A DNA stretch of 64,000 nucleotides, from positions 2,793-66,792 of the forward strand of contig CAZYMS010000004.1 of NCBI GenBank assembly GCA_964648985.1, given 5' to 3'. The notes under the pieces are model-generated. The model had not been told where the DNA came from. It worked only from the letters and a program-made list of their open reading frames with translations, and did not search any database. This DNA comes from an uncultured Candidatus Saccharibacteria bacterium (GTDB lineage Bacteria; Patescibacteriota; Doudnabacteria; UBA920). Shown piece by piece: positions 11,139 to 45,700 of this stretch. The position numbers and the translations under genes are program-made. Every line of letters starts with the position of its first letter. Positions within the stretch are counted from its first letter, which is position 1.

Positions 11139-13253
11139 GTGTGCATAAAAAACCAGATAATTACATTACGAACGTCGAGTATTTTTCTATCTGTCCTTGG
11201 CGTTGTATGCACTGCATTCGTACTCGTACTCATATCTCCCGCTCAAGTCGTTCGTGCTGCTACTTCCAGCAACCTTCTTACTAACCCTGGTGCAGAAACA
11301 AGTGACTTCACGGGGTGGACTGTAGTGAACGGGGGAGATGGTTGGGCTATATCAGGTTTGTTCCACACGGGCTCTCGTAGTTTTATTACTTCATATTTTG
11401 ACGGAACCCTTAGTCAGGAAATAAACCTTTCTAATGCAGGATATAATGGCACGGCCATGGACGCGCAGCCGTACATAGATGCGGGTGTGTGGGTCATGGG
11501 GTACGATTCCGGTTCGGGTACGAACGACCCCTATAGTGTGCGGGTTGAGCTCCGTGACGCGAGTCATGCAGCACTCGTCACCTGGGATACAGGGAGTCAA
11601 ACAGCTACGGGAAGCTGGGCAGAGGTTTCGCATAGGTTTACGAACTACGGCACTGGGGTGCGCTATGTATACATGAGGCTTACGGGCCGTTCTTCTGCAT
11701 TTTGGGCAGGACAGTTTGGCGCGGCATTTGATGATGCTTCAGTAACACTGACCACCAGTGAACCGACTGGTTTTATCTCCGGAAGCTATTCGGACAATAA
11801 TAGCGATGGCAAAGTAGACACGCTTACTGCAGCAGTGAATTTTTCCCCGCTTACCACGTGCGATGTGTCCAGTGGTGAACTTGCCTCGGATTGGACTTAC
11901 AATGGAAATTCTTTTGGTGGGAGTATAGCATCGGCGAGTTGCAACTTGTCCACGGGAACTATCACATTTACCCTTACCGGTGGGAGCGATCATTATACTG
12001 GCGGTACCGCGCCAACCATTGCCTATAACAATACTGATGGTGACAACTCCATTGCTAATTCTATTGGTGCCATGGGCACGGTAACTGCGTTTTCGTTGGC
12101 GGATAGCGCAGCCCCTGTACTTCAAGAGGGGACGCCAGTGACTAATCCAACAAACGACAATACTCCAAACTACTCTTTCTTTTCCTCTGAACAAGGCACT
12201 ATTACCTATGCTGGTGGCTGTACTTCTGCTACTACCACTGCCTTTGGAAGCGCAGGGAATGTTATTACGTTTTCTACGCTTGCAGACGGTACCTATGGTA
12301 TTTGCACTATTAAGGTAACAGATGGTAGCGGCAACCAGTCTGCATTGCTTGCAGTAACTCCGTTTACCGTAGACACGACTACGCCAAACATAACTGGCTT
12401 TACTGTATCAATTCTCCGGAGCATTCTTACTGCCACATGGACCACAAATGAAGCCGCCTCTACCCAGCTGCAGTACGAGATCGGTGCGCTTAGTAACGCT
12501 ACTTCAGTTGCAGATACGAGTCCGCGCACTACTTCACATACCGTTATTGTGTCCGGTGTGGACCCGTGTAATCCGTATACTGTTCGAGCAATAAGCGCGG
12601 ATGCTACTGGCAATACTTCGCAAAGCTCATCTTTTAATATAGCTGCTCAGTCGTGCGGAGTTGCCCTGCCCATTGTTGCGTTCGCAGCGCCCGTGCTTCC
12701 CAGTACTGGTTTTCAAGTATCCGCTGCACGTATGGGTAATAAGCTCATTATAACGTCTAACGCTGGAGACGATGTGAAAACCATGGCTGTTGCTACTACC
12801 TCAGATTTTGCGAATACCGGGCAAATACCGTACGCCAAAGTTGTGGAGTGGGGTAGCGATATGCCAGGGTATTCAGGTACTGCAGAAAAAGTCTATGTAA
12901 AGTTTTATACTAGTTGGGGTCAGTCGAGTAGTGTCTACACTGCGCCAGTAGCAAACACTAAAGTCTTAGGAGTAATCACACCTGAAGTGGCAGCACCAAG
13001 TCCACCAACCATACTATTTAAAACAACGTTAACCACACGAAGTAAGAGTCCAGAAGTAAAAGCTTTGCAGGAGTTGCTCAGAACCATGCCTGGCATATAT
13101 CCAGAAGGGTTGGTAACTGGGTACTATGGAAGTGCAACCCGCAGTGCAGTGCAGCGCTTCCAGCTCCAGTACGGTATAGCGCAGAAAAATAGTGGTGGGT
13201 TTGGAATAGTTGGCCCTGCTACCCGAAAGCAGTTAAATGCATTAGTACGTTAG
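11139..13253 (+). CDS. secreted 704-aa repeat protein with an FN3/PAP-N-like module and a C-terminal peptidoglycan-binding (PG_binding_1) domain. Paralogous modules are shared with 13949..17209
   Basis: Signal-peptide-like N-terminus. 'TGGTAPTIAYNNTDGDNSIANSIGAMGTV' parallels 'TSGTPTIAYDNDDGDNSIANSYGSLGTV' in the 1101-aa protein. 'TWTTNEAASTQLQYEIG...' is FN3-like. The C-terminal 'SPEVKALQELL...GYYGSATRSAVQRFQ' is a PG-binding-1 domain. Confidence 0.7.
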   Translation: MCIKNQIITLRTSSIFLSVLGVVCTAFVLVLISPAQVVRAATSSNLLTNPGAETSDFTGWTVVNGGDGWAISGLFHTGSRSFITSYFDGTLSQEINLSNAGYNGTAMDAQPYIDAGVWVMGYDSGSGTNDPYSVRVELRDASHAALVTWDTGSQTATGSWAEVSHRFTNYGTGVRYVYMRLTGRSSAFWAGQFGAAFDDASVTLTTSEPTGFISGSYSDNNSDGKVDTLTAAVNFSPLTTCDVSSGELASDWTYNGNSFGGSIASASCNLSTGTITFTLTGGSDHYTGGTAPTIAYNNTDGDNSIANSIGAMGTVTAFSLADSAAPVLQEGTPVTNPTNDNTPNYSFFSSEQGTITYAGGCTSATTTAFGSAGNVITFSTLADGTYGICTIKVTDGSGNQSALLAVTPFTVDTTTPNITGFTVSILRSILTATWTTNEAASTQLQYEIGALSNATSVADTSPRTTSHTVIVSGVDPCNPYTVRAISADATGNTSQSSSFNIAAQSCGVALPIVAFAAPVLPSTGFQVSAARMGNKLIITSNAGDDVKTMAVATTSDFANTGQIPYAKVVEWGSDMPGYSGTAEKVYVKFYTSWGQSSSVYTAPVANTKVLGVITPEVAAPSPPTILFKTTLTTRSKSPEVKALQELLRTMPGIYPEGLVTGYYGSATRSAVQRFQLQYGIAQKNSGGFGIVGPATRKQLNALVR

Positions 13254-13750: not shown

Positions 13751-13948
13751 CATAACACCAAAAATACCAAGTGCCCTCTTGGTATTTTTAATGGCAGTTT
13801 TTCAAATCTTGCCATGGGTCTTTGCACGAGTGTTGCTAATATTCTCATGTGCTATGGTATGCGGGTGGCTGCATGCGACAGTATCCAAAGTTGAGGCGAG
13901 TGCATGATATACTTAAGCCATACTAATAAACAAACTTTAGAGAATCCA

Positions 13949-16900
13949 ATGAGGTCATTTGTAAAAATTTGCGCGCTCTTTGCCTGTGCGCTCGTTGCAT
14001 TCGTCGGCGTTCAGCAGCTGGCTCGTGCAGACGTAAACACTGCTCCGGTCTTAGACAACTCCAAAAGTCCAGTATTTTCTTCAATCCTGGAAGATGCCGG
14101 CGCTCCTGTTGGCGCGGTGGGTACGCTGGTGAGCCAGCTCGTAGATTTTGCAAGCCCCGCAGGGCAGGTGGACAACGTGACCGATCCCGATGCCGGCGCG
14201 CTGCTCGGCATTGCCATAACCGAAACAGACGCGAGTCTTACGTGTTACTACACGACGAACGGCGGGTCCGTTTGGTCCTCGCTTGGTACGCCAGCTGCCA
14301 ACTCAGCTCGCCTGCTTGCGGCAAACGCAAATAATCGGGTTTACTGCCATGCCGTTGCGGACCAAAACGGTGTGTACACTTCTGCTATTACGTTCCGCGC
14401 CTGGGACCAGACCAGCGGGGCAGACGGCTCCGTAGTGTCCACGACGACGAATGGCGGTACAACCGCTTTTTCTGTGGCGACCGACACGGCCAGTCTTACC
14501 ATAACCGGAGTGGAGGATGCGCCAACCGGGTATACGGCGTCGTATCAGGATGTGAATAACGATGGCGCGGTTGATCGGCTGGTGGTGGTTGTCAACGGCG
14601 GACATGCGTTGACTGCCTGTACGGTTTCCGCAGGTGAAATTTCCAGTGACTGGACGTATAGCGGCGGCGGTATTGGCGGGTCACTTGCTTCTGCGTCGTG
14701 CGATACGGCAAGCGCGACCATTACGTTTACCATTAGCGGCGCGACCGCGCTCACAACCAGCGGGACACCTACCATTGCCTACGATAACGACGACGGCGAC
14801 AACTCTATTGCGAACTCTTACGGCAGTCTGGGTACGGTAGGTGCTACTGGTGCGGCTGATGAAGCGCCGCCTTACATGTTTCGCGTGACCGACTACTACG
14901 GCGACTATAACCAGGACGGCACCATTACCGACATGTTTATTGCTTTTTCCGAGTCCATTAGCTGCGAAGTAGAGAGTGGTGACTGGAGTTTTTCGGTGGC
15001 GGGCGGTGTGGGCTTTCAAGCGGTCACGGGGTGCTACTCCTATGTGGGCAACACGTACCGCTTTACCGTGACTTCAAGCACGACGTTAGTAACGGGAGGG
15101 ACCGCTCCGCAGTTTACCTATTCTAACCAGGGGACGCTTGGCTCGCTGCGTGATGCTGCGGGGAACCAGGTCGTCACGACCGGGCCGCTTACGTTAAACG
15201 ATGCCGGCGCGCCCCAAATTCGAAGCTTTACGTATCAAGACGCAGATGTAGATGGTAAAATAGACCGCTTGCTCCTTACCTTTACCGAACCAATTACGTC
15301 TAACTCCTTCCTGAGCGCGAACGACCTTGTATTTAACAACGTAGGTGATTTTACCGGGGCTGCATTTGGCACGGATGGCACCGATTTAGTGACAGGGACA
15401 ATAAGCACGCTTACCATGGTACTGGGCACGGAAGCGACAGCAGTGGATACGGCCAATGGTAATGGCAGCATAAGCATTAGTTCGCGAAATAGTTTCGTAC
15501 TGCGTGATGCGGCGTTTAATATAGGTAATACGCTCAAAGTCCAGTCGCAGGCAAGTTATATAGATGGTGCCGCGCCCGTGTATGTGTCTTCCTCTACTTT
15601 GGATAATAACCAAAATGGTACTGTGGATTATGTGCGGGTAACGTATTCAGAACCAATAGACGATGCTTCGGTGGCTGCCGCGGACTTTGCTGCCGGCTTT
15701 ACCGGGGTTTCTGCGGGTGCGCTGGTGGAAAGCGTTGCTTCTGGGACGCCGGCCAGTGGAGTGGTAACCGACACGGCCAACGATGCCGCAATATATGTGG
15801 GCATTGCCAGTGGAACTGATGTGATTGCTCCGAACAAGACAGATTACACAATGCACATTGCCCAAGTGGGGAGCGTGAGTGATGTATCGGGCAATGCGCT
15901 CGCTTCCTTTACCGAGCAGACTTCTACCGACGGTGCGGCTCCGGCGCTGTATACTAGTACGGTTATTGATAGCCCCACCACTAACACCGCGCCCACTATA
16001 TTCTTTTCTATTATAGAAGACGGTACACTCAGTTATACGGGTGGTTGTACCATGCCTCTCACTAACGTTGTGGCAGGGGCTTACTTGCAAGCCTTTGATG
16101 CTCTGGCAGATGGAACCTATAGCTGTACTATTCTGGGAACAGACGCGTTAGGGAATGTTTCTGCGGCGCTGACTATAAATACCTTTACCGTGGATACCGC
16201 GTCACCCCTGCTTTCTGCCGCGAGCGTAGGACAGAGTGCCGGTACCACTACTACCATAACCTGGACCACGAACGAACCAACTTCAAGTATAGTAAACTAC
16301 GGCACTACCACTGCATACGGCAGCAGCACCGGGGAAGTGGACACCGCTCCACGGGTCACCAGTCACTCGGTGAGTATAAGTGGTTTGGTGCTGTGTCGCG
16401 ACTACCATTTTAGACCGTCTTCCAAAGACAGTGCGGGCAACGAGATTGTCGGACCTGACATTGTGTTGAGCAACCTGGGCGGCTGTGGCGCTGCGTTGCC
16501 CGTAGGGGCTTTGTCCGGCCCGGTAGTCCCTGAGGGTGGCTTTAAAATTAGCTTTAAAGAAGGTGCGGTAGTGAGTGCACCGACGGTTACGTTGCTGTTC
16601 AACGCCGGGGAGGATGTGACTCAACTTGCGTTGTCTAACTCCGCAGATTTTTCCCAAGCTGTGTTAGAGGCCTACCAGCCTGTGCGGGTGTGGAATGTAT
16701 GCCAGAAGTCGGCAGCAGATGTACCCGCACCGGTCTGTAAGCCGGGAACCTACGCCGTGTACGTAAAGTTTTATACCAAGTGGGGTCGGTCGTCCGATGT
16801 AGTGACCGCATCGGTTACGGTACAAGAGTCGGGGTTTAGTTCACACTCGCTCGTGCAAGACGGCACTACTATATACCTTATACTGGGTGGGAAAAAATAC

Positions 16901-17209
16901 GGTTTTACTTCGTTTGTCGCATTCCAAGGGCTGGGCTACACAACAAAGCGGGTGGTTCGAGGTAAAACTACTACTGTGCCCCTGGGTGGACTCATTAAAA
17001 ACGCATCGGCCGCTCACTTGAGTGGTTCATGGGTAGTGCAGAATAAAACGGTCTACTTTATAGCCGACGCAGGTCGCATTCCTGTTTCTTCCTGGGAGGT
17101 GTTTCTGGGTAACGGCGGTACTGCTTCGGTTTTGCTCCCCGCCAACTCTGCGGATATGGCTAAACCTGTTCTTCCGACAATGAGCATGAAAGATGGCCGG
17201 GTAAACTAA
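13949..17209 (+). CDS. secreted 1086-1101-aa surface protein with repeated modules, a PAP-N/FN3-like domain and two copies of the C-terminal ~55-aa repeat
   Basis: Signal peptide 'MRSFVKICALFACALVAFVGVQQLARA'. Modules are shared with 11139..13253. The C-terminus carries 'G.TIYLILGGKKYGFTSFVAFQGLGY' and 'NKTVYFIADAGRIPVSSWEVF' repeats. Confidence 0.7.
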   Translation: MRSFVKICALFACALVAFVGVQQLARADVNTAPVLDNSKSPVFSSILEDAGAPVGAVGTLVSQLVDFASPAGQVDNVTDPDAGALLGIAITETDASLTCYYTTNGGSVWSSLGTPAANSARLLAANANNRVYCHAVADQNGVYTSAITFRAWDQTSGADGSVVSTTTNGGTTAFSVATDTASLTITGVEDAPTGYTASYQDVNNDGAVDRLVVVVNGGHALTACTVSAGEISSDWTYSGGGIGGSLASASCDTASATITFTISGATALTTSGTPTIAYDNDDGDNSIANSYGSLGTVGATGAADEAPPYMFRVTDYYGDYNQDGTITDMFIAFSESISCEVESGDWSFSVAGGVGFQAVTGCYSYVGNTYRFTVTSSTTLVTGGTAPQFTYSNQGTLGSLRDAAGNQVVTTGPLTLNDAGAPQIRSFTYQDADVDGKIDRLLLTFTEPITSNSFLSANDLVFNNVGDFTGAAFGTDGTDLVTGTISTLTMVLGTEATAVDTANGNGSISISSRNSFVLRDAAFNIGNTLKVQSQASYIDGAAPVYVSSSTLDNNQNGTVDYVRVTYSEPIDDASVAAADFAAGFTGVSAGALVESVASGTPASGVVTDTANDAAIYVGIASGTDVIAPNKTDYTMHIAQVGSVSDVSGNALASFTEQTSTDGAAPALYTSTVIDSPTTNTAPTIFFSIIEDGTLSYTGGCTMPLTNVVAGAYLQAFDALADGTYSCTILGTDALGNVSAALTINTFTVDTASPLLSAASVGQSAGTTTTITWTTNEPTSSIVNYGTTTAYGSSTGEVDTAPRVTSHSVSISGLVLCRDYHFRPSSKDSAGNEIVGPDIVLSNLGGCGAALPVGALSGPVVPEGGFKISFKEGAVVSAPTVTLLFNAGEDVTQLALSNSADFSQAVLEAYQPVRVWNVCQKSAADVPAPVCKPGTYAVYVKFYTKWGRSSDVVTASVTVQESGFSSHSLVQDGTTIYLILGGKKYGFTSFVAFQGLGYTTKRVVRGKTTTVPLGGLIKNASAAHLSGSWVVQNKTVYFIADAGRIPVSSWEVFLGNGGTASVLLPANSADMAKPVLPTMSMKDGRVN

Positions 17210-19023: not shown

Positions 19024-19887
19024 ATGAAGCGAAGATTTTTAACTACGGCAGACATACAAACTATTTTAACCAATTTTCGCGTTGGCACTTTGGTGCGCAG
19101 ACATTACATAGACGGTACCATTGAGAACCAGAACTATAAAATAGTAACTACCAAAGGAGTCTACCTTTTAAAAGTATTTGGGGATGCGCACGTGCCGGCA
19201 AAGGATATTGTGTTCCAGAACAACTTTATGACTTACTTGCGGGTGCAGCGGCTTAAAGTCCCTAAAGTTATTCCTACTCAAAGTTCGGAAACAGTTATAG
19301 AGTATGCCGGTAAGCCGGTGTCTGTATACCAATTTGTAGAAGGTGCGCACATAACAAAGTTTACTAAGCAGATAGTTACAAGCTTGGCCAAAGAAATAGC
19401 CAAGCTGCACACGGTGCTATTAAACTATAAGTTACCCAAAGAACACCAGAACACTTACTACTCAGTTAAGGCGCAAGGTTTTGTAAAAGGCAAAAAGCTC
19501 CGGTCGACATTACTCCACGGTGACTTGGGCACGGACAACATACTCATGCGTGGGAGTAGGGTAACCGCCATTATAGACTTTAACAACCTACACTGGAGCT
19601 ACCTTATAAACGACCTAGCCACCTTTGCCTTGGTGTTTCTCAGTAAACAAAACCTTAAGTACATTCCCATGTTTTTTGCTGAGTACCAGAAGTACCTCAA
19701 GCTGACCCAAGACGAAAAGGCTAGTCTGCAGTTTTTTATGACCGAACACACCAAAGGCGTACTCCGCTGGCTTGAACAACAACTCAAGCAAAAACGCGGC
19801 AAACAACTCACATACGTAAAAAAGACAAAAATAGCCTACACAAAGAAGTTAGCGCTGCTTAAACAGAATCGAATTACGATAATATAA
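19024..19887 (+). CDS. aminoglycoside/choline-kinase-type phosphotransferase (APH family)
   Basis: 'LLHGDLGTDNIL' catalytic loop and 'IIDFNN' (DFG-like). Confidence 0.6.
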   Translation: MKRRFLTTADIQTILTNFRVGTLVRRHYIDGTIENQNYKIVTTKGVYLLKVFGDAHVPAKDIVFQNNFMTYLRVQRLKVPKVIPTQSSETVIEYAGKPVSVYQFVEGAHITKFTKQIVTSLAKEIAKLHTVLLNYKLPKEHQNTYYSVKAQGFVKGKKLRSTLLHGDLGTDNILMRGSRVTAIIDFNNLHWSYLINDLATFALVFLSKQNLKYIPMFFAEYQKYLKLTQDEKASLQFFMTEHTKGVLRWLEQQLKQKRGKQLTYVKKTKIAYTKKLALLKQNRITII

Positions 19888-19952: not shown

Positions 19953-21167
19953 CTATATGTTGCGTAACCAGTTTCTCACTTTCCATCTAAAAGTATCCTG
20001 TTCAGCTAGCATGGTTTCAAGGCTATGTTTGCGTAGGATTTCAGAGACTTCAAATATCTTTAATTTTACCTCTGGGATTTCCTTGGTTATTGTAGCCAAT
20101 AGTACTGAATATCTATCGCCATTAGTCCGTTTAAATTGTGATTTAAAATTTTCAAATTGAGCAGCTCTTTCTTGACCAGTTTTTGTGATGTGTTTTACTA
20201 TTTTCTCAACTTCATCAGGCAACTGAGCTTCTATTGCCTGGATTTGCAATTCAATCTCAGGCCGTGCTTCAGCTGGCGCTCTTTTAATCTTTGCCCTCAA
20301 ACTTGCAATTTCGTCTGCATATTTAACTTGTAGCTGTCGAGCCTTGTCGCAAAGTAATTCTGTAAAATGAAGATACGTTTCCGCTGTAGATTCGGTGTTG
20401 GTAATGCAGGCATATTCCGCTACGGCATCCGAACCGCCTGCTTGTATGTGCTGTGCTTCCTCCACCCGTTCACTTAAACGACTAAATTCGCTCTGCGGCT
20501 TTAAGTCTTTGCCTAAACGTTCGAGTGCAACCACCCTGCCGTCGTGTTGCTTTTCTAGGCGCACCCAACCGTCGTCTGTTTTACAAACTACTTCATTTAT
20601 ATTATTCTGAGCGGCATCGCTATAGCCAAGCCCTATGGCAATAGGCTCCTCAAATTCTTGTTTGCCCCAATATACATCCGCTGCGGCAATGAGTTGATTG
20701 TTCTTGTGTATGCGACGAAAGCCATCCATCTTTTTGATTTGGTTTTTATCATAAACCAAGCCAACGGGGCCACCGGCTTGCATATCCCGTTTCACTGCGC
20801 TAGCATCTTCCCGCTTGGGCAGTACAGTTACATGCATGTCAGTAAAGGTTAACTCCCCATATACATGCTGTTCAACTTCTCGGCTTGCTTCGCTTTCCAG
20901 GAATAGTTTATCAGCTGATATTTTTACTCCCCAAGACTGCAAGTATTCTGCTCGCTTGGTAGCAATGTTATTGCCTGCGGTGGCAACTTCCTTTGTTACT
21001 TCCTGCCAGTGGGATTCGCCCAATCTATTGAGTTTGGTATAGTACGCATCGTTGGATGCCGACATGGCGAGCTGGCTTTGCTCCCTGCCCAAACTCGTTT
21101 CTGCCGGGCGTTGGCCTTCAATGTTTCTTTGGGTCATATATAATCTTTTAAGATAAGTATAATACAA
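19953..21167 (-). CDS. hypothetical 404-aa protein. A 'KMDGFR' (KxDGxR-like) sequence hints at a nucleotidyltransferase/ligase-like fold, which is speculative
   Basis: Long ORF with a coiled-coil C-terminal half. 'IKKMDGFRRI' then 'KTDDGWVRL' ~48 aa later resemble ligase motifs I and III, but motifs IV and V are not evident. Confidence 0.45.
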   Translation of the reverse strand: MYYTYLKRLYMTQRNIEGQRPAETSLGREQSQLAMSASNDAYYTKLNRLGESHWQEVTKEVATAGNNIATKRAEYLQSWGVKISADKLFLESEASREVEQHVYGELTFTDMHVTVLPKREDASAVKRDMQAGGPVGLVYDKNQIKKMDGFRRIHKNNQLIAAADVYWGKQEFEEPIAIGLGYSDAAQNNINEVVCKTDDGWVRLEKQHDGRVVALERLGKDLKPQSEFSRLSERVEEAQHIQAGGSDAVAEYACITNTESTAETYLHFTELLCDKARQLQVKYADEIASLRAKIKRAPAEARPEIELQIQAIEAQLPDEVEKIVKHITKTGQERAAQFENFKSQFKRTNGDRYSVLLATITKEIPEVKLKIFEVSEILRKHSLETMLAEQDTFRWKVRNWLRNI

Positions 21168-21605
21168 ACTGGCCTAAAACTCCCGCTTTGCCGTCGTGAT
21201 GGTCACCTTCGCGACCGCTTTTTATACCGAGGGTGAGTGGCTGGAGTTTAATTAGAATTTATTACTTAAATAAAACTAATTCGTTACTTATCCACAATCA
21301 TATTCTTGCCTAACCTTTACAAAAAGTATAGGCTTATTGGGTAGTTCTTTGAAAATCAAGCTAGAATAATAACGGTCAATAATATTTCGAATTTTCTAGA
21401 TATCCGACAGTGATATCTCCCCTTCCAGTCTCGAACTACTTTTAAGACTGACAAGGTTCTCACACACCCGCACGCCCAATTCTCCGCGTTCAAAAGAGAA
21501 GTCCAAGAATGCCGCCCTGTAGTACCTGGGCGATTGGCGAATGGAGTGGTTGAAGTAGAGCAAGCGAGTAGTAAATTAGACATTCAACGTTCGCTTCGCT
21601 CGCGA

Positions 21606-21682
21606 CTACTTAGTAGCTAACGGTTACTTTAGTTCTATACGGAAAGTTATATCGAAATTTTAACCGTTAGAAGCTTAAGTAG
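21606..21682 (+). repeat. long interrupted inverted repeat (about 19 bp stem, 34-nt loop) inside a 0.7-kb ORF-free AT-rich region. Candidate structured ncRNA, possibly retron msr/msd-like
   Basis: CTACTTA-gt-AGCTAACGGTTA (21606-21626) pairs with TAACCGTTAG-aa-GCTTAAGTAG (21661-21682). A second small hairpin AGATATC/GATATCT lies at 21398-21418. Confidence 0.3.
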
Positions 21683-21889
21683 TTGTTTAGGTCGTAAATT
21701 TACAAATGTAGTTAATCCAACTCATAATTTATGGAACATCCAACTTCTCATCCTTTCAGTCTTAGCTTGAACTTTCCGTATTTATGGGCGGTTATACGTT
21801 ATGGAACGATTGTTGCGAATTATCCTGCTAATATTGCAGATTATTCGTTTGCTAATCGATATAATGTACTAGCCGCCCTTTAGTTATTT

Positions 21890-22231
21890 ATGTACACTTT
21901 TCCAATATTATTAAAAAAAATAAGAGAAGAAAGCGGCCTGTCCCAGAAGCAATTGGCTGATGTTTTGGATGTATCTGAAATACTTGTCACTTTGATCGAA
22001 ACCGATAAGAAAGAGCCCTCTCGGAAGTTTATTAATAAGCTCGCTAGTAAACTAGAGGTAAGCCCTAGTTCTATAACTCCATTTATGATTGATGTTGCCG
22101 AAGAGAGTAATTTGTCTTTAATAGAAAGAAAATTATTCAATGTCGCATCAAAAATTCAAGAGTATTTGATATCAAAGAAGTCTCATAATTTAAATAAATA
22201 TATAAAAAATGGTTATGCTCCCGAAGATTAA
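21890..22231 (+). CDS. XRE-family helix-turn-helix protein, overlapping the downstream RT gene
   Basis: 'LLKKIREESGLSQKQLADVLDVSEILVTLIETDKKEPSRKFINKLASKL' is a canonical Cro/C1-type HTH. A TATAAT sits at 21860-21865. Confidence 0.65.
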   Translation: MYTFPILLKKIREESGLSQKQLADVLDVSEILVTLIETDKKEPSRKFINKLASKLEVSPSSITPFMIDVAEESNLSLIERKLFNVASKIQEYLISKKSHNLNKYIKNGYAPED

Positions 22232-23189
22232 TATCCGAAGCATTGCCGAGCTATCCCGCCGTTTGTCTGACAAGTCGCTGCCTAGACAGAGGGCGCTGGC
22301 GCTCATTCAGGATGTCCTGGCCAATCAGTTCAGACTTTGGAAAGATTCAAAAGCATCAGATGCGTCTAAAAGAAAGTTTGTCCGCAATGCTAAGCGAACA
22401 AAGTTGGGTAACTTATTGCATCTCATTGACCATAAGGTTCTTGCTGTGCACGATAAAGAATTACCAGGATTTATATTTGGTGGGGTTACATCAAAAAGTC
22501 ATTTGGATGCCGCTTTTGCTTTAATGGGCAATAGTAGAAAAAGAACATTATTAGCTCTAGATATCAGTACTTTTTTTGAAAATGTTGATGCTGCAAGCGT
22601 TACCAACTTTTTTTGTAAAGCAGGGTGCTCTCTAAAGTTGGCTGAACAGTTGAGTAATGTCTGCTGCGTGCCAGAGGGTCCAAAAGATAATCCTAGTCCT
22701 TTCAGGACACTGGCTCGTGGTTTTGCAACTTCCACTCGTCTGGCGACTTGGGTCAATATAGGTACTTTTAAGAAGTTAGAGTTGCTAGTGAGAAATAGGC
22801 TCCGAAGATTTGACCCTAGAATCGCCATCTTTGTGGATGATATAGGTATTACCGCAAGTAATGTGCCAAAAGCAAAGATGGTGTCCTTAGGCCTAGAGAT
22901 ACAGAAGCTATTGGCAACTTTTGATAATAATCAACCTCTCCCCCTTAACGCTAAGAAGAGCAAAGTTCTTACATGGGAAGAGGGTATGGAACACTTGGGT
23001 GTTCGTCTTGGGAAAGGCGGTTTGTCCCCAGGCAGAAAATCTCAGATAAAATACGCAAAGCTTTTGAACGAGATAGGAAAAACTAACAATAACTTTCAAA
23101 GAAGGAAGTTATTGCAAAAGAAAAAGGGGCATACACGATATAGGCGGTTTATTAGGCAGAGTAATGTAGCGCGTACCACATCTGTATAA
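22209..23189 (+). CDS. prokaryotic reverse transcriptase (retron/Abi/defence-RT-like)
   Basis: RT motif 2 'RKRTLLALDISTFFENV' (compare retron 'KRYILKIDLKDFFHSI'). Motif B-like 'RGFATSTRLATWV'. Motif C 'IAIFVDDIGITAS' (YxDD). Thumb-like 'HLGVRLG'. Confidence 0.65.
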   Translation: MVMLPKINIRSIAELSRRLSDKSLPRQRALALIQDVLANQFRLWKDSKASDASKRKFVRNAKRTKLGNLLHLIDHKVLAVHDKELPGFIFGGVTSKSHLDAAFALMGNSRKRTLLALDISTFFENVDAASVTNFFCKAGCSLKLAEQLSNVCCVPEGPKDNPSPFRTLARGFATSTRLATWVNIGTFKKLELLVRNRLRRFDPRIAIFVDDIGITASNVPKAKMVSLGLEIQKLLATFDNNQPLPLNAKKSKVLTWEEGMEHLGVRLGKGGLSPGRKSQIKYAKLLNEIGKTNNNFQRRKLLQKKKGHTRYRRFIRQSNVARTTSV

Positions 23190-23234
23190 ATAAAAGCAAT
23201 GAATATATGCTGACTGTTTTTATTTATGCTTCTT

Positions 23235-24850: not shown

Positions 24851-25051
24851 TCATTCTTTATATTCCAGAATATCGCCCGGTTGGCAGTCCAAAGCTTCGC
24901 ATATTGCCTCTAAGGTAGAGAAGCGGATGGCTTTGGCTTTGCCGTTTTTGAGTATGGAAATGTTGGCCATGGTAATGCCGACTTTCTCGGTGAGCTCGGT
25001 TACGCTCATTTTTCGTTTGGCTAACATAACGTCTAGGTTGATAATTATCAT
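24851..25051 (-). CDS. YozG-like small XRE-family transcriptional regulator
   Basis: 'MIIINLDVMLAKRKMSVTELTEKVGITMANISILKNGKAKAIRFSTLEAICEALDCQPGDILEY' closely matches this family. Confidence 0.7.
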   Translation of the reverse strand: MIIINLDVMLAKRKMSVTELTEKVGITMANISILKNGKAKAIRFSTLEAICEALDCQPGDILEYKE

Positions 25052-25238: not shown

Positions 25239-25718
25239 TTAAACGGTTAAGTCGTTTTCGGATTTTAGGTCCACCGCTTTTTGTAATAGGTTTTCGAACA
25301 AGGCGGCGGCTGTAGCGGTTACGACGGTGGTAAAAATTAATATTAGTCCTATAGCAACGCCTCCGGCAATGTCATCCTCGGGTCTGGCTAAAACTAGGTA
25401 AGCTTCTGCACCCACTATAAAACCAATAAACGTGAGTGCGCAGTATTTTATAGTGCGGAACGCATTTACTGTTGCCTGGGAGAATGACTTATTTTGCCGT
25501 ACGTACCCGAGTATCTTGAAAGCCTTGTACAGTGCTACAAAGAAGCAGATAAATGCTACATATATGTATGCTAAAAACGGGTCTTTAAAGTACACTTCAA
25601 AGTTGGTAGCATGTGTATTTCTACCCTCTAAGTGAGGCTCCCATAAAAGAAGGGCAAGAGTGCCAATGCCAATTAGGATAGTTACAATTTGTAGAAATAT
25701 AGTTGAGCCTCGTTTCAT
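25239..25718 (-). CDS. DUF2975-family membrane protein, the usual partner of YozG-like regulators
   Basis: ~160 aa with four TM helices, directly upstream of and co-oriented with the YozG-like gene. Confidence 0.5.
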   Translation of the reverse strand: MKRGSTIFLQIVTILIGIGTLALLLWEPHLEGRNTHATNFEVYFKDPFLAYIYVAFICFFVALYKAFKILGYVRQNKSFSQATVNAFRTIKYCALTFIGFIVGAEAYLVLARPEDDIAGGVAIGLILIFTTVVTATAAALFENLLQKAVDLKSENDLTV

Positions 25719-30709: not shown

Positions 30710-33700
30710 ATGCCCCACATGCCGTCCGTAGTCAAACTTTTTTTCCTTGCCAGCTGCTTTGTGCTAGCTGGGTTTTTATTTCTAGCAAGTCCAATAAAAG
30801 CTGCTGTAGCTGAGGAGGTCGTTGCATCGTCGGAGACATCGCTTGCAGCACTAGTTCCCACCCAAGAAGTAGCTACAACTTCAGCTGAGGGAGTAGCAAG
30901 TGAGCCAGCTCCTACGGTAGTTGCAGAAGTCACTGTAAGTGAAGAAATAATCGATGCACCTGAAGCAGAAGCTGCCCCAGGTACTGAAGGCGCCGATGTT
31001 CCTGAGGCCACAACTCCAGCACCTGAAGCCAGCACTTCTACCTCCGAGGATGCCAGTGCCCAGGTGCTGATTGTTTCAGAAGCTACGGAGCAAGAAGGTG
31101 CATTAGATACTGCCCCGGATGTTGCTGAAGTTCCAGAAGAGTCGAGTGAAGAAGTGGTGCCCGAAATTATAGCAGCAGGGCCAGAGCAAGTTGCACAAAC
31201 TGAGGAAGCAGCATCAGTTGCAGAGAGCGGTGCGGCCCCAAGTGCAAAGTCCGCTCCAGAGGAAATAATTTCTGAAACTCCTGTTGCGGAAACCCCTGCT
31301 CAAGGCACAGAGATGACACCAGAGGTAGAAGTTCCAGCAGTGGAAGTTGCGGAGACAGCAAGTGAAATTTCTGTGGGAGAAGAATTGCCTGTAGCTGAAG
31401 TTACAGAAATTGCACAATCAACCGCGATTGAGGAAGCGCTAGAAACTGAGAGTGTGGCTCCAACAGTAGAAGAAAATATTTCTGAGACAGTAGAAGCAGA
31501 AACGGAAGTCGCATCTACTGTAGATGCGACACCAACAGTGGTAGAAGAATTTACCAGCAATGGAAAAACAGTGGTGGTATCTTCTACGGAAGAGCAAGAG
31601 CTGGTGCATCCTATGGTCAACGTTCCAGTAGGTACCGACATACCAGAAATATTTCGAGTGGGTCAGGAAGATCAGATAAAAATAAAATGGCAAAACAATG
31701 ATGGTCAGGAAATGCAGTTCACTGCGCTCGACACAAATGACAACGGATATATTGACCGTGTCGAGTGGATAGTGCCGCATCTTTCAACTCAAACGTTTGA
31801 AATTATTTATATTTCCAATGCGTTACTTTTGGACGAACATAAAAATACCGTTGGTGATATATACGGGCTTGTGGCGACGCAGGACCAAAACTATGCGAGC
31901 GTAACCAACGGGCAATTCGTGCGCGTAACATTTGAGCATATCTTAAATGAAAGTAGAGATATTACCCTCTATGCCAAGCCGGCGAATCCAGCAGAGCCAG
32001 CAACTATAGAAGCGTATACCGTAGACGGCCAGCGCATAGCTACGTTTGCAACCATAGACCATGACGGAAAATACAGAATAATTCTTCTGGGACTTTCCAA
32101 TCCTTCCGCAGTGTTCGATTTGAAAGTTACGGGCGCTGTTGATATTGACTTTATTATTGACCCACCGGCAAATGCGTATTGGGTTGGCGGCGCGGGTAAT
32201 TGGTCTGATGCTGCTAATCACTGGGCAACAACATCTGGTGGAGCCCCGGGCGCAGGTAATGCCCCTGATGCAACTAGTAATGTAATTTTTGATGCTTCTT
32301 CTGGGTCTGCTTCTGATATTGTGAATATTGATACCACTATAACTATTGGTTCGTTAGCTATAAATGGTTTTACTGGTACAATTTCTCAAAATGCAGATGT
32401 GAGCATAACTAATTCTGGCGGACAGTCAGGAAGTTATTCACAAACTTCAGCCGCTACTTGGACAGCGCCAGATCCTGGTACAGACACTTTTTCTGCTACT
32501 GGAAGTTTTTCGGTGACAGCTGGAACATTTAGGCGTTACACCGGAACAGGTATCAGCACCGATCCATTCGTAATTTATGACGTTTACGGCTTACAGGCAA
32601 TGAAAACCAATCTCGCAAATTCATATCGGTTAAATGGTAACATTGATGCATCTGTAACTACCGGTTGGAATTCTGGGGAAGGATTTGTACCAGTTGGAAC
32701 AAATATCACAAACTTTACTGGAAATTTTGATGGCGCAGGATTTGTTATAAGCGATTTATTTATTAACTCAACAACTTTAAGTTATGTTGGGTTATTTGGT
32801 TATACTCTTGGTAGTATTCAAGATTTGACATTGACTAATGCAGATATTACTGGTGTCGGGATTGCTGGGAGTAATGGATCCGATGGTGCAGCCGGAAGTT
32901 CCGGTACTACCCCAACTGTTGGTGGTACTGGTACTATTGGCACCGCCGGCAGTATTTTATATATTGGAGGTTTGGCGGGTTATAACGCTGGAACGATTAC
33001 TAATATTAGCATTTCTGGAACTGTAACTGGAACTGGCGGAGCAGGTGGTAATTCGGGTAATGGTGGTGCAGGCGGAAACACTACGAGCGGAGCAACTGTA
33101 TCTGGAGCAGGTGGTACTTCGTTAGCTGGCGGAGCGGGTGCAGTAGTATATAGCGGAGGTTTAATTGGCTACTCTGCTCAAGGTAGCATAAATGATTCTA
33201 GTTCTTCGGCAATCGTAACTGGAACTGGCGGAGCAGGTGGTAATTCGGGTAATGGTGGTGCAGGCGGAACTAATTCTGGTTCTGGTATTGGTGGCGCAGG
33301 TGGTGGAGTAGGTGCACCGGGTGTTGGTGGTATAAGTTATACAGGTGGTCTAATTGGTTGGGTCAACTCCGGTATTGTTGTAACATCTTTTGCAACCGGC
33401 AATGTTATTGCTGCTGGTGGAACGGGTGGTTCTGCCGGTGCGGCAGGCGTGGGTGGTGCTGGTGGTACAGCAGCTATTGGCGGCGCTGGCGGCGCTGGCG
33501 GTACGGGTGCAACTGGCGGCGCTAGTTTTGCTGGAGGTTTGGTTGGAAATAATTTAGGTAACATTCGTTTTGCTTCATATGCGACAGGGGATATAACTGC
33601 TACTGGAGGTACACCTGGGAATGGTTCTGCCGGAGGGACTGCAGGGGCAAGTGCAGTTGCAACTACTGGAACAGCTGCAACAGGGGGCGCCGGTGGCGTT

Positions 33701-36700
33701 GGTGGCGCCGGTGGTATTGCGTACGCTGGTGGTTTGGTTGGGCAAAATAATTCTGATGGTGTAGTTAGCGGTGTCACTGCTCCTAACTATGCGACAGGTG
33801 ACGTAACTGCAACTGGTTCAAACGGGCAAAATGGACAAGTTGGTGGAACTGGTGGGAGTGCAGCAGCCGGTACAGCGCATACAGGAGGTACTGGCGGCGC
33901 TGGTGGAACTGGCGGTGCTGGTGGTGGTGCGTACGCTGGTGGTTTGGTTGGGCTAAATACAGGAGTAATTTTAATTTCAAATTCTAATACTGGAACTGTG
34001 ACTGTTGTAGGTGGTACTGGCGGCGCTGGAGGTACTGGCGGCACAGGCGGTGCGAAAGGATCAAGTGGTTCTAATGGTGCAAATGGAGCATCTGGAACCG
34101 GTGGTTCCGCAAATGTAACTTCTTCTTATGTTGGTGGGTTAGTTGGGAGTAATGTTGGAGCAGTCCAAGATTCTTATTCCACAAACCCGGTTATAGGAAC
34201 CGGTGGTGCGGGTGGTAGTGGTGCAACTGGAGTAAATGGGTTAACGGGAATAGTCGGAGCTACCGGGGGAACTGGGGGTGCGGCTGGTGTTCTATATATT
34301 GGTGGTGTTGCCGGAAACAATACCTTGACTATTACCGGCAGCTATCACACAACTGGAGCAGTCACAGGTACTGCTGGCAGTGGTGGTTCGGCTGGCGCAG
34401 GTGGTGCCGGCGGCACTGGTGCGTTAGCAGGTGCAGGCGGGGTTGCTACAGTGGGGGCAATTATTTATGCGGGCGGCGTTATTGGAAACAACACAGGTAA
34501 TTCTCTTTTAAATGATTACTCAACATCTAACGTCACTGGAACTGGTGGAGCAGGAGGCAACGGAGCAAGCGGCGGAGTAGGCGCTACTAGTTTAGCTGGT
34601 ATAACAGGTACTGTTGGCGCAGTCGGCGGCATTGCGTATGTTGGTGGTGTAGTTGGTTATAGTTCTAATGGTGAAATTTTAGAATCTTATTCAACCGGTG
34701 ATGTAGTTGCTATCGGCGGCGCAGGGGGCACTGGCGGCAATGGTGGTGCCGGCGGAACTGGAGCAGCTTCTACTACTGGGGGTGCTGGTGCAAATGGAGC
34801 TATTGGCGGGGCAGGGGGCGCAGCATTCGGCGGCGGTGTTTTAGGTAACTATATACTAGGTCCAATTGGCGAAGTGCATAATACTGGTAACGTTACGGTT
34901 ACTGGGGGCACTGGTGGTAACGGTGGAGCTGGCGGCACTGGTGGTAACGGTGGCACCAATGCTGTTGGGGGCACTGGTGGTAACGGTGGAGCTGGCGGCG
35001 CAGGTGGTGTGGCAAATAGTGGTGGTATTGCCGGGCAGAGCACAGGTGTTATTAACGGTGTTTCATATTCTACTGGAAATATTACTGCGATAGCCGGAAC
35101 TCCTGGGAATGGTGGAGTAGGTGGTGCTGGCGGCTCAACTACTGCAACTTTTAATGCTACAGCTGCTGCGGCAGGTGGAACTGGTGGTGCCGGTGGCGCT
35201 GGAGCAATTGCCTATGCTGGGGGCTTGGTTGGAAACAATGCTAATACAATTATTAACTCATATGCTAGCGGTATAATTACAGCAACTGCTAGTGCAGGTA
35301 AAGATGGTGCGGCTGCTGGCAGTGCAGGTAATGGATCGGCTGGAGGATCAAGTCATGCTGGAGCAGTAGGTGCAACGGGCGGCGCTGGCGGCGCTGGAGC
35401 CGCTGCTTATGCAGGTGGCTTGGCTGGGTTAAATACTTCTACAATTACAAATTCATATATACAAACTGGTTCGGTAACGGCAACAGGTAGTATAGGGGGG
35501 AATGGAGCAGCTGGCGCTTCTGGTGGTGTTGGCGGTACGAGCGCAATAGGCGGTGTTGGTGGTGTTGGCGGCGTCGGTGGTGCTGGCGGTGTTGGTCATG
35601 CAGGTGGAGTTGCTGGCCATAACAACACTGGTGGTGTTGTTCAAGATGGGACTTATTCAAATGTTAACATCACTTCTCTTGGCGGTACTTCAGGCAATGG
35701 CGGCGCCGGTGGTGCTGGTGGGGTTCGTGCTGTTGGCGGCGCCGGTGGTGCGGTAGTAGCAGGTGCTATTGCCTATGCTGGCGGATTAGTTGGTTTGAAT
35801 ACAGCAACAATTGCAGATTCACACGCAACTGGAAATGTGACAGCTACCGCTGGCTCCGGTGGTTCTCCAGGTTCTGGTGGTAATGGTGGTAGTGGAACAA
35901 CTGGTGCGGCTGGTGGAGCTAGTGGTGCTACTGACGTAGCAGCTTCTGTTTTGCTTCGTATTGGCGGTGCCGCATATGCTGGCGGTTTACTGGGTTACAA
36001 TACAACAAATGGAATAATTCAAGGTACTTCTTATTCCACAGGTGATGCTACATCAACTGGTGGTGCGGGTGGTGCAGGAGCTAATGGAGCCAACGGTGGT
36101 AACTCATCTGGAGCAGTAGCTGGTGCCGCGGGCATAGCAGGTATTAGCGGTGGCGCGGGTGGAGTTGGTGCCGCGGGTGGATTGGTTGGTTGGAATATAG
36201 GCGTAGTGAGCCCTGCTTCTTATGCTCAAGGTGACGTAAGTGCAGCCGGCGGTGTTGGTGGATCGTCTGGAAGTGCTGGTACACCTGGTTCTAGCGGTGC
36301 TGGTATGGCTGGTGTTGCAGGAGTTGCTGGTGGCGCTGGTGGTATTGGTGGTGCCGCATATGCTGGCGGTGTAATTGGATACAATGGTGTTTTAGGTTCA
36401 ACAATTAGTACAGCAAATAATGTGGGCACTGTTGCTTCGATAGGCGGCGCGGGAGCTAATGGTGCTGTCGGTGGCGCTGGCGGCGCCGGGGGGAGTTCTA
36501 CTGGTGCAATTGGCGGAGCAGGTGGCGCTGGCGGAGCAGGTGGCGCTGGCGGAGCAGCTTACGGTGCCGGTGTTGCTGGTTTAAATATTGGATTAATTAA
36601 AGACGTAAATTATACAATCACTACTGTTACAGTTGTGGGCGGCGCTGCGGGTAATGGTGCTGTGGGCGGTAATGCTGGACCTTCAGGGAATATTTCTGGA

Positions 36701-42700: not shown

Positions 42701-45700
42701 GGCGGTTCGCCAATTACGGTTACTGGTTTAACCAATGGTACAACCTATACCTTTACTGTTACAGCGACCAATGCTAACGGTACCAGTTCGGCTTCCGGCA
42801 CAAGCAATGCGGTTACACCTGCAACTGTCCCAGGTGCTCCTACAAATGTTTCTGCAGTACGGGGTAACGGACAAGCAACTATTACATTTACTGCTCCTGC
42901 TGGTAATGGCGGTTCAGCGATATTGTCGTACACAGTTACATCCAGTCCCGGCGGACTTACCGCTACTGGCGGCTCTTCGCCATTGGTTGTCACTGGTCTT
43001 TCAAATGGTACAACATACACTTTTACGGTTACCGCTACAAATAGTGCAGGTACAGGTGTTTCTTCAAGTTCAAGCAACTCTGTAACACCAGCAACAGTAC
43101 CTGGCGCTCCTACTGGTGTCACAGCTGTCGCAGGCAACGGACAAGCAACTATTACATTCACGGCTCCTCTAAGCAATGGTGGTGACCCTATTACTTCTTA
43201 TACCGTTACCTCAAGCCCAGGCGGATTTACAGCGACCGGCGGCAGCTCCCCAATTATCGTAACCGGACTTACGAATGGTACTGCATACACGTTTACTGTT
43301 GTGGCGACTAACACCATTGGAAATAGTACGTCATCTAGTACTAGTAATTCTGTAACACCAGCAACAGTACCTGGCGCTCCTACTGGTGTCACAGCTGTCG
43401 CAGGCAACGGACAAGCAACTATTACATTCACGGCTCCTCTAAGCAATGGTGGTGACCCTATTACTTCTTATACCGTTACCTCAAGCCCAGGCGGATTTAC
43501 AGCGACCGGCGGCAGCTCCCCAATTATCGTAACCGGACTTACGAATGGTACTGCATACACGTTTACTGTTGTGGCGACAAATGCGGTAGGTGATAGCAGT
43601 GCTTCTTCGAGCAGCAATGCGGTTACACCTGCAACTGTCCCAGGTGCTCCTACAAATGTTTCTGCAGTACGGGGTAACGGACAAGCAACTATTACATTTA
43701 CTGCTCCTGCTGGTAATGGCGGTTCAGCGATATTGTCGTACACAGTTACATCCAGTCCCGGCGGACTTACCGCTACTGGCGGCTCTTCGCCATTGGTTGT
43801 CACTGGTCTTTCAAATGGTACAACATACACTTTTACGGTAATAGCTACGAATGCAGTGGGAGACAGCAGTAGTTCAAGTGCAAGCAATTCAATTTCACCA
43901 GCCACAGTACCCGGCGCCCCTATAGTTGGTACGGCAACTGCTGGGGACGGCGAAGCAACTATTACATTTACACCACCAGCGAGTGACGGCAGTGCTGTCA
44001 TAACCAGCTACACCGTAACTTCCAGCCCTGGCGGGCTTACTGCCACTGGTGGTTCTTCACCGCTTATAGTTACAGGACTTACGAATGGTGTCACGTATAC
44101 GTTTACCGTAACAGCGACCAATGCTGTTGGGGTAAGTAGTGGCTCGAGCTCGAGTAATTCTGTGGTTCCAAAAACTATTCCCGGTGCTCCAACAGGTGTC
44201 ACCGCCGTTCGCGGAAATGGTGAAGCGACTATTACGTTTACTGCTCCGGTGAGCAACGGCGGCTCAGCCATAACCAGCTACACCGTTACTTCCAGCCCTG
44301 GCGGCTTTACCGCAACCGGCGGATCTTCGCCAATCACGGTAACAGGTTTGACCAACGGTACAACATATACGTTTACGGTGACTGCGACAAATGCTGCTGG
44401 TACGAGCATTGCTTCTAGCTCGAGTAACTCAGTTATTCCTGCTACGGTGCCCGGTGCACCTACAGCCGTAACCGCCGTTCGCGGAAATGGTGAAGCCTCT
44501 GTTTCATTTACTGCGCCTATTAGCAACGGCGGTTCGGCAATAACCGGCTATACCGTTACTTCCAGCCCGGGCGGCATAACCGCTAGTGGCGGTTCTTCGC
44601 CAATAGTTATAACTGGTCTTTCAAATGGCACTGCATACACGTTTACGGTAGTGGCAACAAATGCTATAGGTAGTAGCGCTGCTTCGAGCTCCAGTAATTC
44701 AATCACTCCTGCTGCTGTGCCAGGCGCGCCAACAAGTGTTGCTGCTGTTGCGGGTAATGGCGAAGCAATCATTTCATTTACTGCGCCGCTTGACAATGGG
44801 AGTGCTGCCATAACTAGCTACACCGTTACTTCCAGCCCTGGCGGCTTTACCGCAACCGGTGGTTCTTCGCCACTCATTGTGACAGGTTTAACCAACGGCG
44901 TAACATATACGTTTACCGTTACCGCAACGAATGCAGTTGGTACGAGCATTGCATCCAGCTCCAGTAATTCCATAGTGCCTGCAACAGTACCAGGTGCGCC
45001 AACTTCAGTAACCGCCGTTCGCGGAAATGGTGAAGCGACTATTACATTTACTGCTCCGGTGAGCAACGGCGGTTCAGTCATTACCGGTTACACCGTTACT
45101 TCCAGCCCTGGCGGCTTTACTGCCACTGGTGGTTCTTCACCGCTTATAGTTACAGGACTTACGAATGGTGTCACGTATACGTTTACCGTTACTGCAACGA
45201 ATGGCATTGGTACGAGCATAACTTCCAGCTCATCCAATTCAGTGGTACCAGCAACAGTGCCCGGTGCTCCAACAGCCGTAACCGCCGTTCGCGGAAATGG
45301 TGAAGCGACTATTACATTTACTGCTCCGGTGAGCAACGGCGGTTCAGTCATTACCGGTTACACCGTTACTTCCAGCCCTGGCGGCTTTACCGCAACCGGC
45401 GGATCTTCGCCAATCACGGTAACAGGTTTGACCAACGGTACAAGTTACACCTTTACGGTAGTGGCCACGAATGCAGTGGGCTCGAGTAGTAACTCAGGTG
45501 CAAGTAGCGCAGTAACTCCTGCTACTGTGCCGGATGCGCCTATAAACGTAGCGGGAACAATTGGTGATGGTAGTGTTACTGTGTCCTTCACAACCCCGGT
45601 ATCGAATGGTGGCTCCGCAATAACCAGCTACACGGTTACTTCGAACATTGGCGGCTTTTTTGCCACCGGTAGTTCATCGCCTCTTACAGTGACTGGTTTA

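Follow-up and report, generated by a model that had tools for sequence, protein, structure and literature searches.

A 2-kb module lies within the 64,000-nucleotide stretch of uncultured Candidatus Saccharibacteria DNA analyzed here (contig CAZYMS010000004.1, positions 2,793 to 66,792 of the forward strand; hereafter, the window). We consider it quite probable that this module is a type VI retron, an abortive-infection system built around a reverse transcriptase (RT), and that it comes from a large clade found mainly in genomes of the Patescibacteria, that is, the candidate phyla radiation (CPR). Read along one strand (+), the operon consists of a structured RNA, a leader open reading frame (ORF; frame A), a candidate toxin ORF nested within it (frame B), a helix-turn-helix (HTH) gene, and the RT gene. 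The locus adds a member to the established type VI retron family, and the architecture of its RNA and toxin is, as far as we could find, undescribed. The original prediction, made from the sequence alone, had recognized the layout of HTH gene, RT gene, and upstream RNA as that of a type VI retron, and this is borne out by the PADLOC models RT_VI and HTH_VI, by a retron-RT fold, and by a covarying RNA on the + strand. It had overlooked a small toxin gene that follows the RNA and precedes the HTH gene, and that the literature of 2025–2026 regards as the effector of type VI retrons. The helices, the coding frame, and the distribution of the family reported below were established computationally.

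Type VI retrons were defined as a clade 3 RT accompanied by a Cro/C1 HTH protein of 91–110 aa (cluster 2_1), encoded upstream of or overlapping the RT gene, and sometimes by an accessory protein of 75–79 aa; no noncoding RNA was recognized at that time (Mestre et al. 2020, PMC7736814). The accessory small protein occurs in only about one quarter of type VI members.

The 326-aa ORF that ends the operon was correctly taken for a prokaryotic RT: it matches Pfam RVT_1 just over the threshold (30.4 bits), and the aspartates of motifs A and C are intact. Alignment to 36 relatives shows the aspartate of motif A (LDIS, D118) to be nearly invariant and D210, D211, and G213 of motif C (F/YVDD; FVDD in the window) to be invariant. 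Comparison with the profile hidden Markov models (HMMs) for retron and other defense RTs, the check that had been proposed, places RT_VI first (4.1e-23, 80 bits), with a near full-length match covering positions 31–276 of the 279 in the profile, and RT_IV second at 40 bits. All 37 aligned family members match RT_VI, and the best E-value for that model across the family, 2.6e-34, is the lowest of any model. NCBIfam yields only sub-threshold retron and Drt3a matches, the latter at 15.8 bits against a cutoff of 200. Since a profile search of Protein Data Bank (PDB) sequences is nearly blind to this RT family, we turned to a search by fold. The AlphaFold2 model built from the family alignment is of high confidence (pLDDT 93.9, pTM 0.88), and each of its 14 best matches in a Foldseek search of the PDB is a retron RT (E 4e-13 to 3e-9, TM 0.56–0.72); the retron RTs matched in this way are Ec86, type I-A, Eco7, Eco2, Eco8, Ec83, and Ec78. 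Going by the ranking of HMMs, we assign the RT, within retron RT clade 3, to the type VI lineage.

The HTH gene of the XRE (Cro/C1) type is, as had been noted, co-oriented with the RT gene and overlaps it by 23 nt, and its Pfam family is HTH_3. HTH_VI is the top PADLOC model for its product. At 113 aa, with its gene overlapping that of the RT and conserved in related loci, this is the small Cro/C1 protein that one would look for in a type VI retron, and we predict that it serves as antitoxin and as a repressor partner to the RT. Another Cro/C1 regulator in the window, a 66-aa HTH_26 protein (24851..25051, −) whose gene adjoins that of a DUF2975 membrane protein (25239..25718, −), also matches HTH_VI weakly (21 bits), probably through generic XRE similarity.

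A search of 5.8 billion proteins returned 146 homologues of the RT, all about 320 aa long, of which one is 95% identical and the rest are 42–56% identical; the named ones come from Patescibacteria lineages. In a scan of one genome per species, 51 loci were found, almost all of them in Patescibacteria (Saccharibacteria, Paceibacterota, Doudna-, Magasanik-, Wolfe-, Collier-, and Gottesmanbacteria), together with a few in bins labeled Bdellovibrionales, Gammaproteobacteria, and Planctomycetota. The HTH gene lies directly upstream of the RT gene in about 44 of these 51 loci; the others are cut off or masked, and one, L043, is an exception that has no HTH gene. At least 40 relatives, nearly all from Patescibacteria, share the same layout of RNA, ORFs, HTH gene, and RT gene. 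An ABC transporter encoded in the window has its best named homologues in Paceibacterota, Doudnabacteria, and Magasanikbacteria, which places the host among the Patescibacteria as well. No relatives of the RT were found in plasmids and phages by tblastn or in IMG/VR viral contigs by a pattern scan. CPR members of the type VI retrons are known to exist but are uncharacterized, and the literature that we searched contained no paper on them.

The upstream RNA is the part of the locus for which comparison among relatives is indispensable. Only about 21600–21889 of the upstream stretch is conserved, 21168–21560 having no conserved counterpart in relatives. The 300 nt upstream of the HTH start were aligned for 28 loci (alignment A2). 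RNAalifold gave two long-range helices (H1 and H2), in which every pair shows compensatory changes; two more helices (P1 and P2) were read from the alignment, and pairs were then counted for all four. Across the 39 pairs, 87.7% of the alignment cells are paired, as against 36–45% when the partners are slid by one to three columns, and changes on both sides are seen at 38 pairs. The covariation score is 0.542, compared with 0.10–0.16 in the slid controls, and none of 500 shuffles reached any of the observed pairing measures. G-U pairs are frequent, which fits transcription of the RNA from the + strand.

P1 and P2 form the only large stem in the RNA. The four helices provide the structured RNA that the original prediction expected upstream of the HTH and RT genes. 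Of the two RNA checks that it proposed for 21168–21889, the Rfam search gave no match, and the structural one succeeded in the form of comparative analysis and a covariance model of our own. A first model, R1, built from the automatic consensus, captured only seven pairs and was replaced by R2, which describes P1 and P2. R2 has a single match in the whole window (21600–21689, +, 53 bits) and also matches upstream of the RT gene in six loci absent from its build set. Single-sequence folds of 21630–21790 are unremarkable on both strands (z −1.0 and −1.5); the structure is revealed by comparative analysis only.

H1 is a covarying long-range repeat of 9–12 bp, reminiscent of the a1/a2 pairing of the canonical msr-msd layout, with its 5' arm within the P2 loop. 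All nine of its pairs covary (one position is G-C in 12 loci, C-G in 11, A-U in two, and U-A in two), and eight or nine of them form in 37 of 40 loci. Because the 5' arm lies in the apical loop of P2, H1 forms a pseudoknot; its 3' arm is found some 130 nt downstream of that loop, just upstream of the toxin ribosome-binding region. A local GTTCC/GGAAC hairpin that would compete with H1 is paired in 79% of cells and shows few compensatory changes. All nine pairs of H2 likewise covary, with 96% of cells paired. Since H2 joins the G-rich element ahead of frame B to sequence at and after the frame B stop, the toxin initiation region is predicted to be locked, so that the structured region upstream of the HTH gene holds a toxin ORF with a putatively sequestered ribosome binding site (RBS). 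The loci of the Saccharibacteria clade, which A2 does not include, likewise form H1 and H2, though from other sequences.

Signals farther 5' are faint. Folds of the 41 nt upstream of P1, where a possible hairpin P0 lies, have a mean z of −0.67 over the 28 loci and +0.17 in the window. The promoter and terminator scan gave counts not above the shuffled expectation and nothing significant at P0. A TTTACA/CATAAT site at 21699–21728 cannot be trusted as a promoter.

The 0.7 kb upstream of the HTH gene, which had been described as free of ORFs, holds two of them, one nested in the +1 frame of the other. Frame A has 47–111 codons in 38 of 40 loci and usually starts with ATG, and frame B has 20–31 codons. 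Frame A is open in all 32 loci in which this could be compared with chance, against 4.4 expected when the frame B peptides are held fixed, synonymous codons are resampled, and the upstream part is shuffled; the third frame is open in none. The frame A peptide is not conserved though the frame is kept open. The HTH start lacks a GGAG, GAGG, or AGGA Shine–Dalgarno motif in 39 of 40 loci and follows the frame A stop closely, at 6 nt in the window and 4–38 nt (median 9.5) across loci. Because the HTH start is so poorly provided for and so near to this stop, and because frame A is open beyond chance, we infer that frame A is a leader ORF feeding the HTH and RT genes, whose translation rather than product matters.

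Frame B shows the signs of a coding frame. Its ATG is conserved in 36–37 of 40 loci, inside an otherwise variable stretch, and over the gap-free overlap of the 40 loci the entropies of its first, second, and third codon positions are 1.33, 0.62, and 1.66 bits, the classical coding signature. The peptides (20–31 aa, consensus MxxxxLRILxIIxxIIRIxxDxxx) have a grand average of hydropathy (GRAVY) of 1.35, a hydrophobic moment of 0.53, and a mean charge of +3.4. Judged by these features, the frame B peptide is a cationic amphipathic hydrophobic helix and appears to be the toxin of this retron. We also weighed a programmed frameshift from frame A into frame B and set this reading aside: no slippery site is conserved, many loci have stops shortly before frame B begins, and its ATG is conserved.

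Two related loci depart from this arrangement. In the Paceibacterota locus L026 (2506–2652), frame B has an internal stop (MKFFRAL*ILLQVVRILRDLLC) and frame A is open; the toxin may have been inactivated there, or an alternative start may be used. L043 (2781–3996), from a sheep-gut Saccharibacteria genome and with an RT that is 38% identical, has two overlapping small ORFs directly upstream of the RT gene, the inner of which has a different hydrophobic C-terminus (…ILDILADIAEIVALLVALLA).

The closest known systems are two type VI retrons, each described in a preprint. In Retron-Vpa2, a hybrid RNA serves both as RT template and as the translationally repressed message of a 55-aa toxin, the small protein (SP); the HTH protein represses reverse transcription, and phage-induced single-stranded DNA (ssDNA) derepresses SP translation (Zhang et al. 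2025, 10.1101/2025.10.22.683967). In Retron-Sen3, ssDNA is made constitutively, the HTH protein binds the RT and serves as an antitoxin, and the trigger is RecBCD inhibition; in the Sen3 RNA, a stem-loop precedes the 5' repeat, the SP RBS is sequestered, and the SP gene is bracketed by an inverted repeat (Garcia-Rodriguez et al. 2026, 10.64898/2026.04.27.721009). The ssDNA of type VI retrons is reported to activate rather than restrain the toxin.

The present locus resembles both in gene order (RNA, small ORF, Cro/C1 HTH gene, RT gene), in the overlap of HTH and RT genes, in a predicted small toxin gene embedded in a conserved structured transcript, and in a candidate toxin that is a hydrophobic amphipathic helix; the best matches of its RT and HTH protein are type VI HMMs. 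As in Sen3, the RBS region of the toxin is paired within a helix, and the toxin ORF is flanked by an inverted repeat comparable to IR1-IR2. A short hairpin often found just 5' of the first conserved helix recalls the stem-loop described for the cl2075 lineage. A direct repeat in the P2 loop, CGGAA(C/G)G plus TTCGGAA (21639–21646 and 21652–21658 in the window; A2 columns 69–75 and 86–93), is conserved, and a conserved A(A/G)GGTCG motif follows P1 (21688–21695); these may correspond to the conserved direct repeats reported for the Vpa2 hybrid RNA.

The differences are equally plain. The peptide of 20–31 aa is set apart by size and cluster from the SPs of Sen3 (79 aa) and Vpa2 (55 aa), and lies outside the SP clusters. 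Its ORF is nested in the +1 frame of a nonconserved ORF ending at the HTH start, and neither preprint speaks of frames that overlap. With its a1-like arm in a hairpin loop, the RNA contains a pseudoknot, and a long msd-type stem is absent, unlike in Vpa2 and Sen3. The hosts are Patescibacteria, not the Proteobacteria or Bacteroidetes of known type VI retrons, and motif C reads F/YVDD, not the YADD of known type VI RTs. Compared with Ec86 (Retron-Eco1), the locus shares the RT fold (Foldseek E 4e-13, TM 0.67–0.69), an upstream RNA on the same strand, and the a1/a2-like repeat; it differs in having no Rfam msr match and no long msd hairpin, and in carrying the effector gene inside the RNA.

A further parallel comes from outside the retrons. 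In the hok/mok/sok system of plasmid R1, a hydrophobic toxin ORF is overlapped by an ORF in another frame whose translation governs that of the toxin, and long-range fold-back pairing of the two ends of the hok mRNA keeps the toxin untranslatable. Control of a small hydrophobic toxin by an overlapping ORF and by folding back would be common to both systems. Unlike hok/mok/sok, with which there is no sequence homology, the present locus has no evident antisense RNA gene, its regulator is presumed to be the HTH protein and RT-made DNA, and its overlapping ORF would also feed the HTH and RT genes.

On the model of Vpa2 and Sen3, the RNA would be a hybrid RNA, both template for the RT and message for the toxin. 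In the uninfected cell, H2 would repress toxin translation, and the HTH protein would bind the RT and either neutralize the toxin or repress reverse transcription. Phage interference with host nucleases or recombination might then lead to accumulation of RT-made ssDNA, or the RNA might otherwise be remodeled; H1 and H2 would open, the membrane-active peptide would be made, and the infected cell would arrest. To this we would add a role for frame A, whose ribosomes may carry translation on to the HTH and RT genes and pass through H2 on the way, coupling the supply of antitoxin to access to the toxin, rather like mok with hok. A tentative but attractive proposal, for which we would claim a little less than even chances, is that the effector is the 20–31-aa cationic amphipathic peptide of the +1 frame and not the annotated ORF, that the outer ORF is its leader, and that the hybrid RNA contains a hok/mok-style gate to which H1 ties the hairpin loop.

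Several observations weigh against a type VI retron of this kind and should be kept in mind. The RT_VI score is modest (80 bits), and it is by the ranking of HMMs that the RT is set apart from types IV and V. Between the P1-P2 hairpin and the a2-like arm there is no canonical long msd hairpin (mean z +0.42, with none of the 28 loci below −1.5), and the a1-like arm is located within a hairpin loop and not at the 5' end of the RNA, for which reason the template and priming site cannot be assigned. No Rfam 15 family reaches its gathering score anywhere in the window, and matches with E ≤ 10 in 20800–23600 are only chance noise at the level of snoRNAs. The frame B peptide is far below the size of described SPs (55–79 aa) and matches no SP cluster and no Pfam or PADLOC HMM; indeed, neither of the small ORFs, the nonconserved one of 50 aa and the conserved one of 23 aa, has the size of the type VI accessory protein, and neither matches Pfam or PADLOC. 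The production of msDNA (multicopy single-stranded DNA), the toxicity, the role of the HTH protein, and the defense function expected here are carried over from two preprints on distant relatives, and in a heterologous census, six type VI retrons gave no detectable RT-DNA, among them the only CPR member assayed, from Candidatus Levybacteria, which belongs to the original dataset (10.64898/2026.04.27.721009).

These points lend some weight to a reading in which the core of the system is a toxin–antitoxin pair, a small hydrophobic toxin with an HTH antitoxin, and the RT makes no classical branched msDNA but acts as an RNA-binding sensor or, in the manner of a defense-associated reverse transcriptase (DRT), on another template. 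The missing msd-type hairpin, the atypical place of the a1-like arm, and the silent census would all suit it, as would the finding that the HTH-SP module of Retron-Sen3 works without RT and noncoding RNA (10.64898/2026.04.27.721009). We nevertheless regard it as unlikely: the catalytic residues of the RT are invariant across the family; RNA, RT, and HTH co-occur and co-vary across at least 40 loci; Vpa2 and Sen3 both make RT-dependent ssDNA and need RT catalysis for defense; and DRT models score far below RT_VI.

Within the type VI retron reading, one may also ask whether the 50-aa frame A product is the real SP, the frame B pattern being a by-product of constraints on RNA structure or codons. 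Frame A is the ORF called on L053, a related contig recovered from a different sample. Nearly all loci have its ATG, those of the Saccharibacteria clade show a strong AGGAGG Shine–Dalgarno sequence for it, and its length is close to that of the Vpa2 SP (55 aa). The coding signature of frame B means, on the other hand, that in the overlap the third codon position of frame A is the most conserved and the first the least. The apparent motifs of frame A fall on the H1 and H2 arms, where compensatory pair changes alter its amino acids, and the two differences from L053 in the frame B segment are both synonymous in frame B and nonsynonymous in frame A. Its C-terminus is, moreover, not hydrophobic (GRAVY 0.19), and an effector role for frame A is improbable.

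That the RT belongs instead to another class of CPR retroelement, a diversity-generating retroelement (DGR), a group II intron, or an abortive infection (Abi)/DRT defense RT, is a very remote prospect, even if a review puts the share of DGRs among CPR RTs at about 80% and a group II maturase is the nominal top hit among the weak matches of the PDB sequence profile search (6.6e-05): no direct repeat of at least 35 nt involves the locus within the 21 kb of 12000–33000, leaving no template/variable repeat pair, and no Avd-like gene is found among the window ORFs and family matches; there is no intron RNA or other Rfam family at the locus, and at 326 aa the RT lacks a maturase or endonuclease extension; in the Foldseek search, G2L4, DGR, group II intron, DRT2, and DRT9 enzymes rank below the retron RTs; and the PADLOC DRT, unknown group (UG), and Abi models give at most 16 bits (RT_UG26 16.3, Drt8 13.2) against 80 for RT_VI. 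The DRT, Abi, and DGR classes kept in reserve by the original prediction can thus be set aside.

Table 1. Coordinates in the window of the features of the probable type VI retron locus and its borders
Feature	Position	Strand	Evidence or remark
Possible short hairpin P0	21562..21596	+	Just 5' of P1; recurs in many relatives, weak support
Weak −35/−10 pair, TTGAAG / TAAATT	21550–21555 / 21572–21577	+	Read by eye; overlaps P0
P1-P2 hairpin domain, 85 nt	21602..21686	+	34-nt apical loop with conserved CGGAA motifs
Helix P1	21602–21612 with 21676–21686	+	Compensatory changes at 11/11 pairs
Helix P2	21617–21626 with 21661–21670	+	Compensatory changes at 9/10 pairs
H1 5' arm (a1-like), ATACGGAAAGTT	21637..21648	+	Perfect 12-nt inverted repeat; covarying part 21640–21648
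H1 3' arm (a2-like), AACTTTCCGTAT	21770..21781	+	Covarying part 21770–21778; inside frame A
Frame A leader ORF, 50 aa	21731..21883	+	Stop invariant, 6 nt before the HTH ATG
H2 5' arm, ATGGGCGGT	21784..21792	+	G-rich Shine–Dalgarno-like element, 6–9 nt upstream of the frame B ATG
Frame B nested ORF, 23 aa, MERLLRIILLILQIIRLLIDIMY, candidate toxin (SP)	21801..21872	+	Coding signature, conserved ATG
H2 3' arm, GCCGCCCTT	21872..21880	+	Overlaps last base of the frame B stop; anti-Shine–Dalgarno-like
Cro/C1 (XRE) HTH protein, 113 aa	21890..22231	+	Pfam HTH_3 2.3e-11; PADLOC HTH_VI 5.4e-14
Retron-type (type VI) RT, 326 aa	22209..23189	+	PADLOC RT_VI, AlphaFold/Foldseek, intact active site
Block about 96% identical to L053	21225..23190		Minimum extent of the recently shared module; blastn and 50-nt identity bins
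Terminator-like hairpin and T-run	21200–21227	+	No + gene upstream; left edge of the L053-shared block
AT-rich inverted repeat, possible bidirectional terminator	23186..23227		Between convergent RT and DUF4153 genes; 13-nt arms, 92% complementary

The composition of the module and its neighborhood suggest recent movement. At 0.390, the GC content of the interval 21168–23230 is well under the 0.459 of the window; no other 2-kb stretch in the 64 kb is as poor in GC, and the interval falls in the bottom 0.5% of sliding windows. The claim that the whole module is more AT-rich than its flanks holds for the interval, for the RNA region (0.358), and for the HTH gene (0.319), and fails for the RT gene, which at 0.421 is like its neighbors (0.42–0.44). 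Identity to L053 is about 96% from 21225 to the RT stop; on the downstream side it falls to 62–86% in the DUF4153 gene, and on the upstream side it is 78% in the gene for the CPBP protease. This contrast of module and flanks, along with the GC minimum, fits recent exchange of a 2-kb module, as judged from a single comparison (L053), and agrees with the horizontal acquisition that had been proposed.

Some differences from L053 lie at the left border. An APH-family kinase gene (19024..19887) and a 404-aa ORF without a family match (19953..21167, −), which stand between the CPBP gene and the module in the window, are absent in L053. An intact 64-aa ORF in L053 (465–640) is reduced in the window to its last 10 codons, 21225–21255 (...TEGEWLEFN*). 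The AT-rich inverted repeat at the right border (23186..23227) was not reported by the terminator scan. Farther away, the window contains a single giant ORF of 5511 aa (30710..47245, +) and, upstream of the module, genes for large surface proteins of 1101 aa (13904..17209) and 704 aa (11139..13253; FBA and peptidoglycan-binding domains). A 36-nt direct repeat with 83% identity (12891–12926 and 16757–16792) is common to the latter two genes, probably because their products share a homologous C-terminal domain, and is no template/variable pair of a DGR. The 64-kb window contains no tRNA genes.

Type VI retrons are the least understood type of retron, and the two preprints that describe them differ on the manner of control, one arguing for translational derepression by ssDNA and the other for post-translational toxin–antitoxin control. 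The present locus stands for a large, diverse, and uncharacterized clade (146 protein matches and 51 species-level genome loci) whose hosts are ultra-small, host-dependent Patescibacteria, in which DGRs were thought to dominate the RT repertoire. We recommend caution with the annotated small ORFs of type VI loci, since these may not be the conserved effector frame. The RNA is compact and its covariation clean, so that individual helices, a pseudoknot from hairpin loop to toxin leader, and an RBS-locking helix can be named, and testable predictions follow on how reverse transcription is coupled to toxin translation. If H1 does tie the loop of the presumed RT-template hairpin to the gate, reverse transcription of that hairpin could itself release translation of the toxin.

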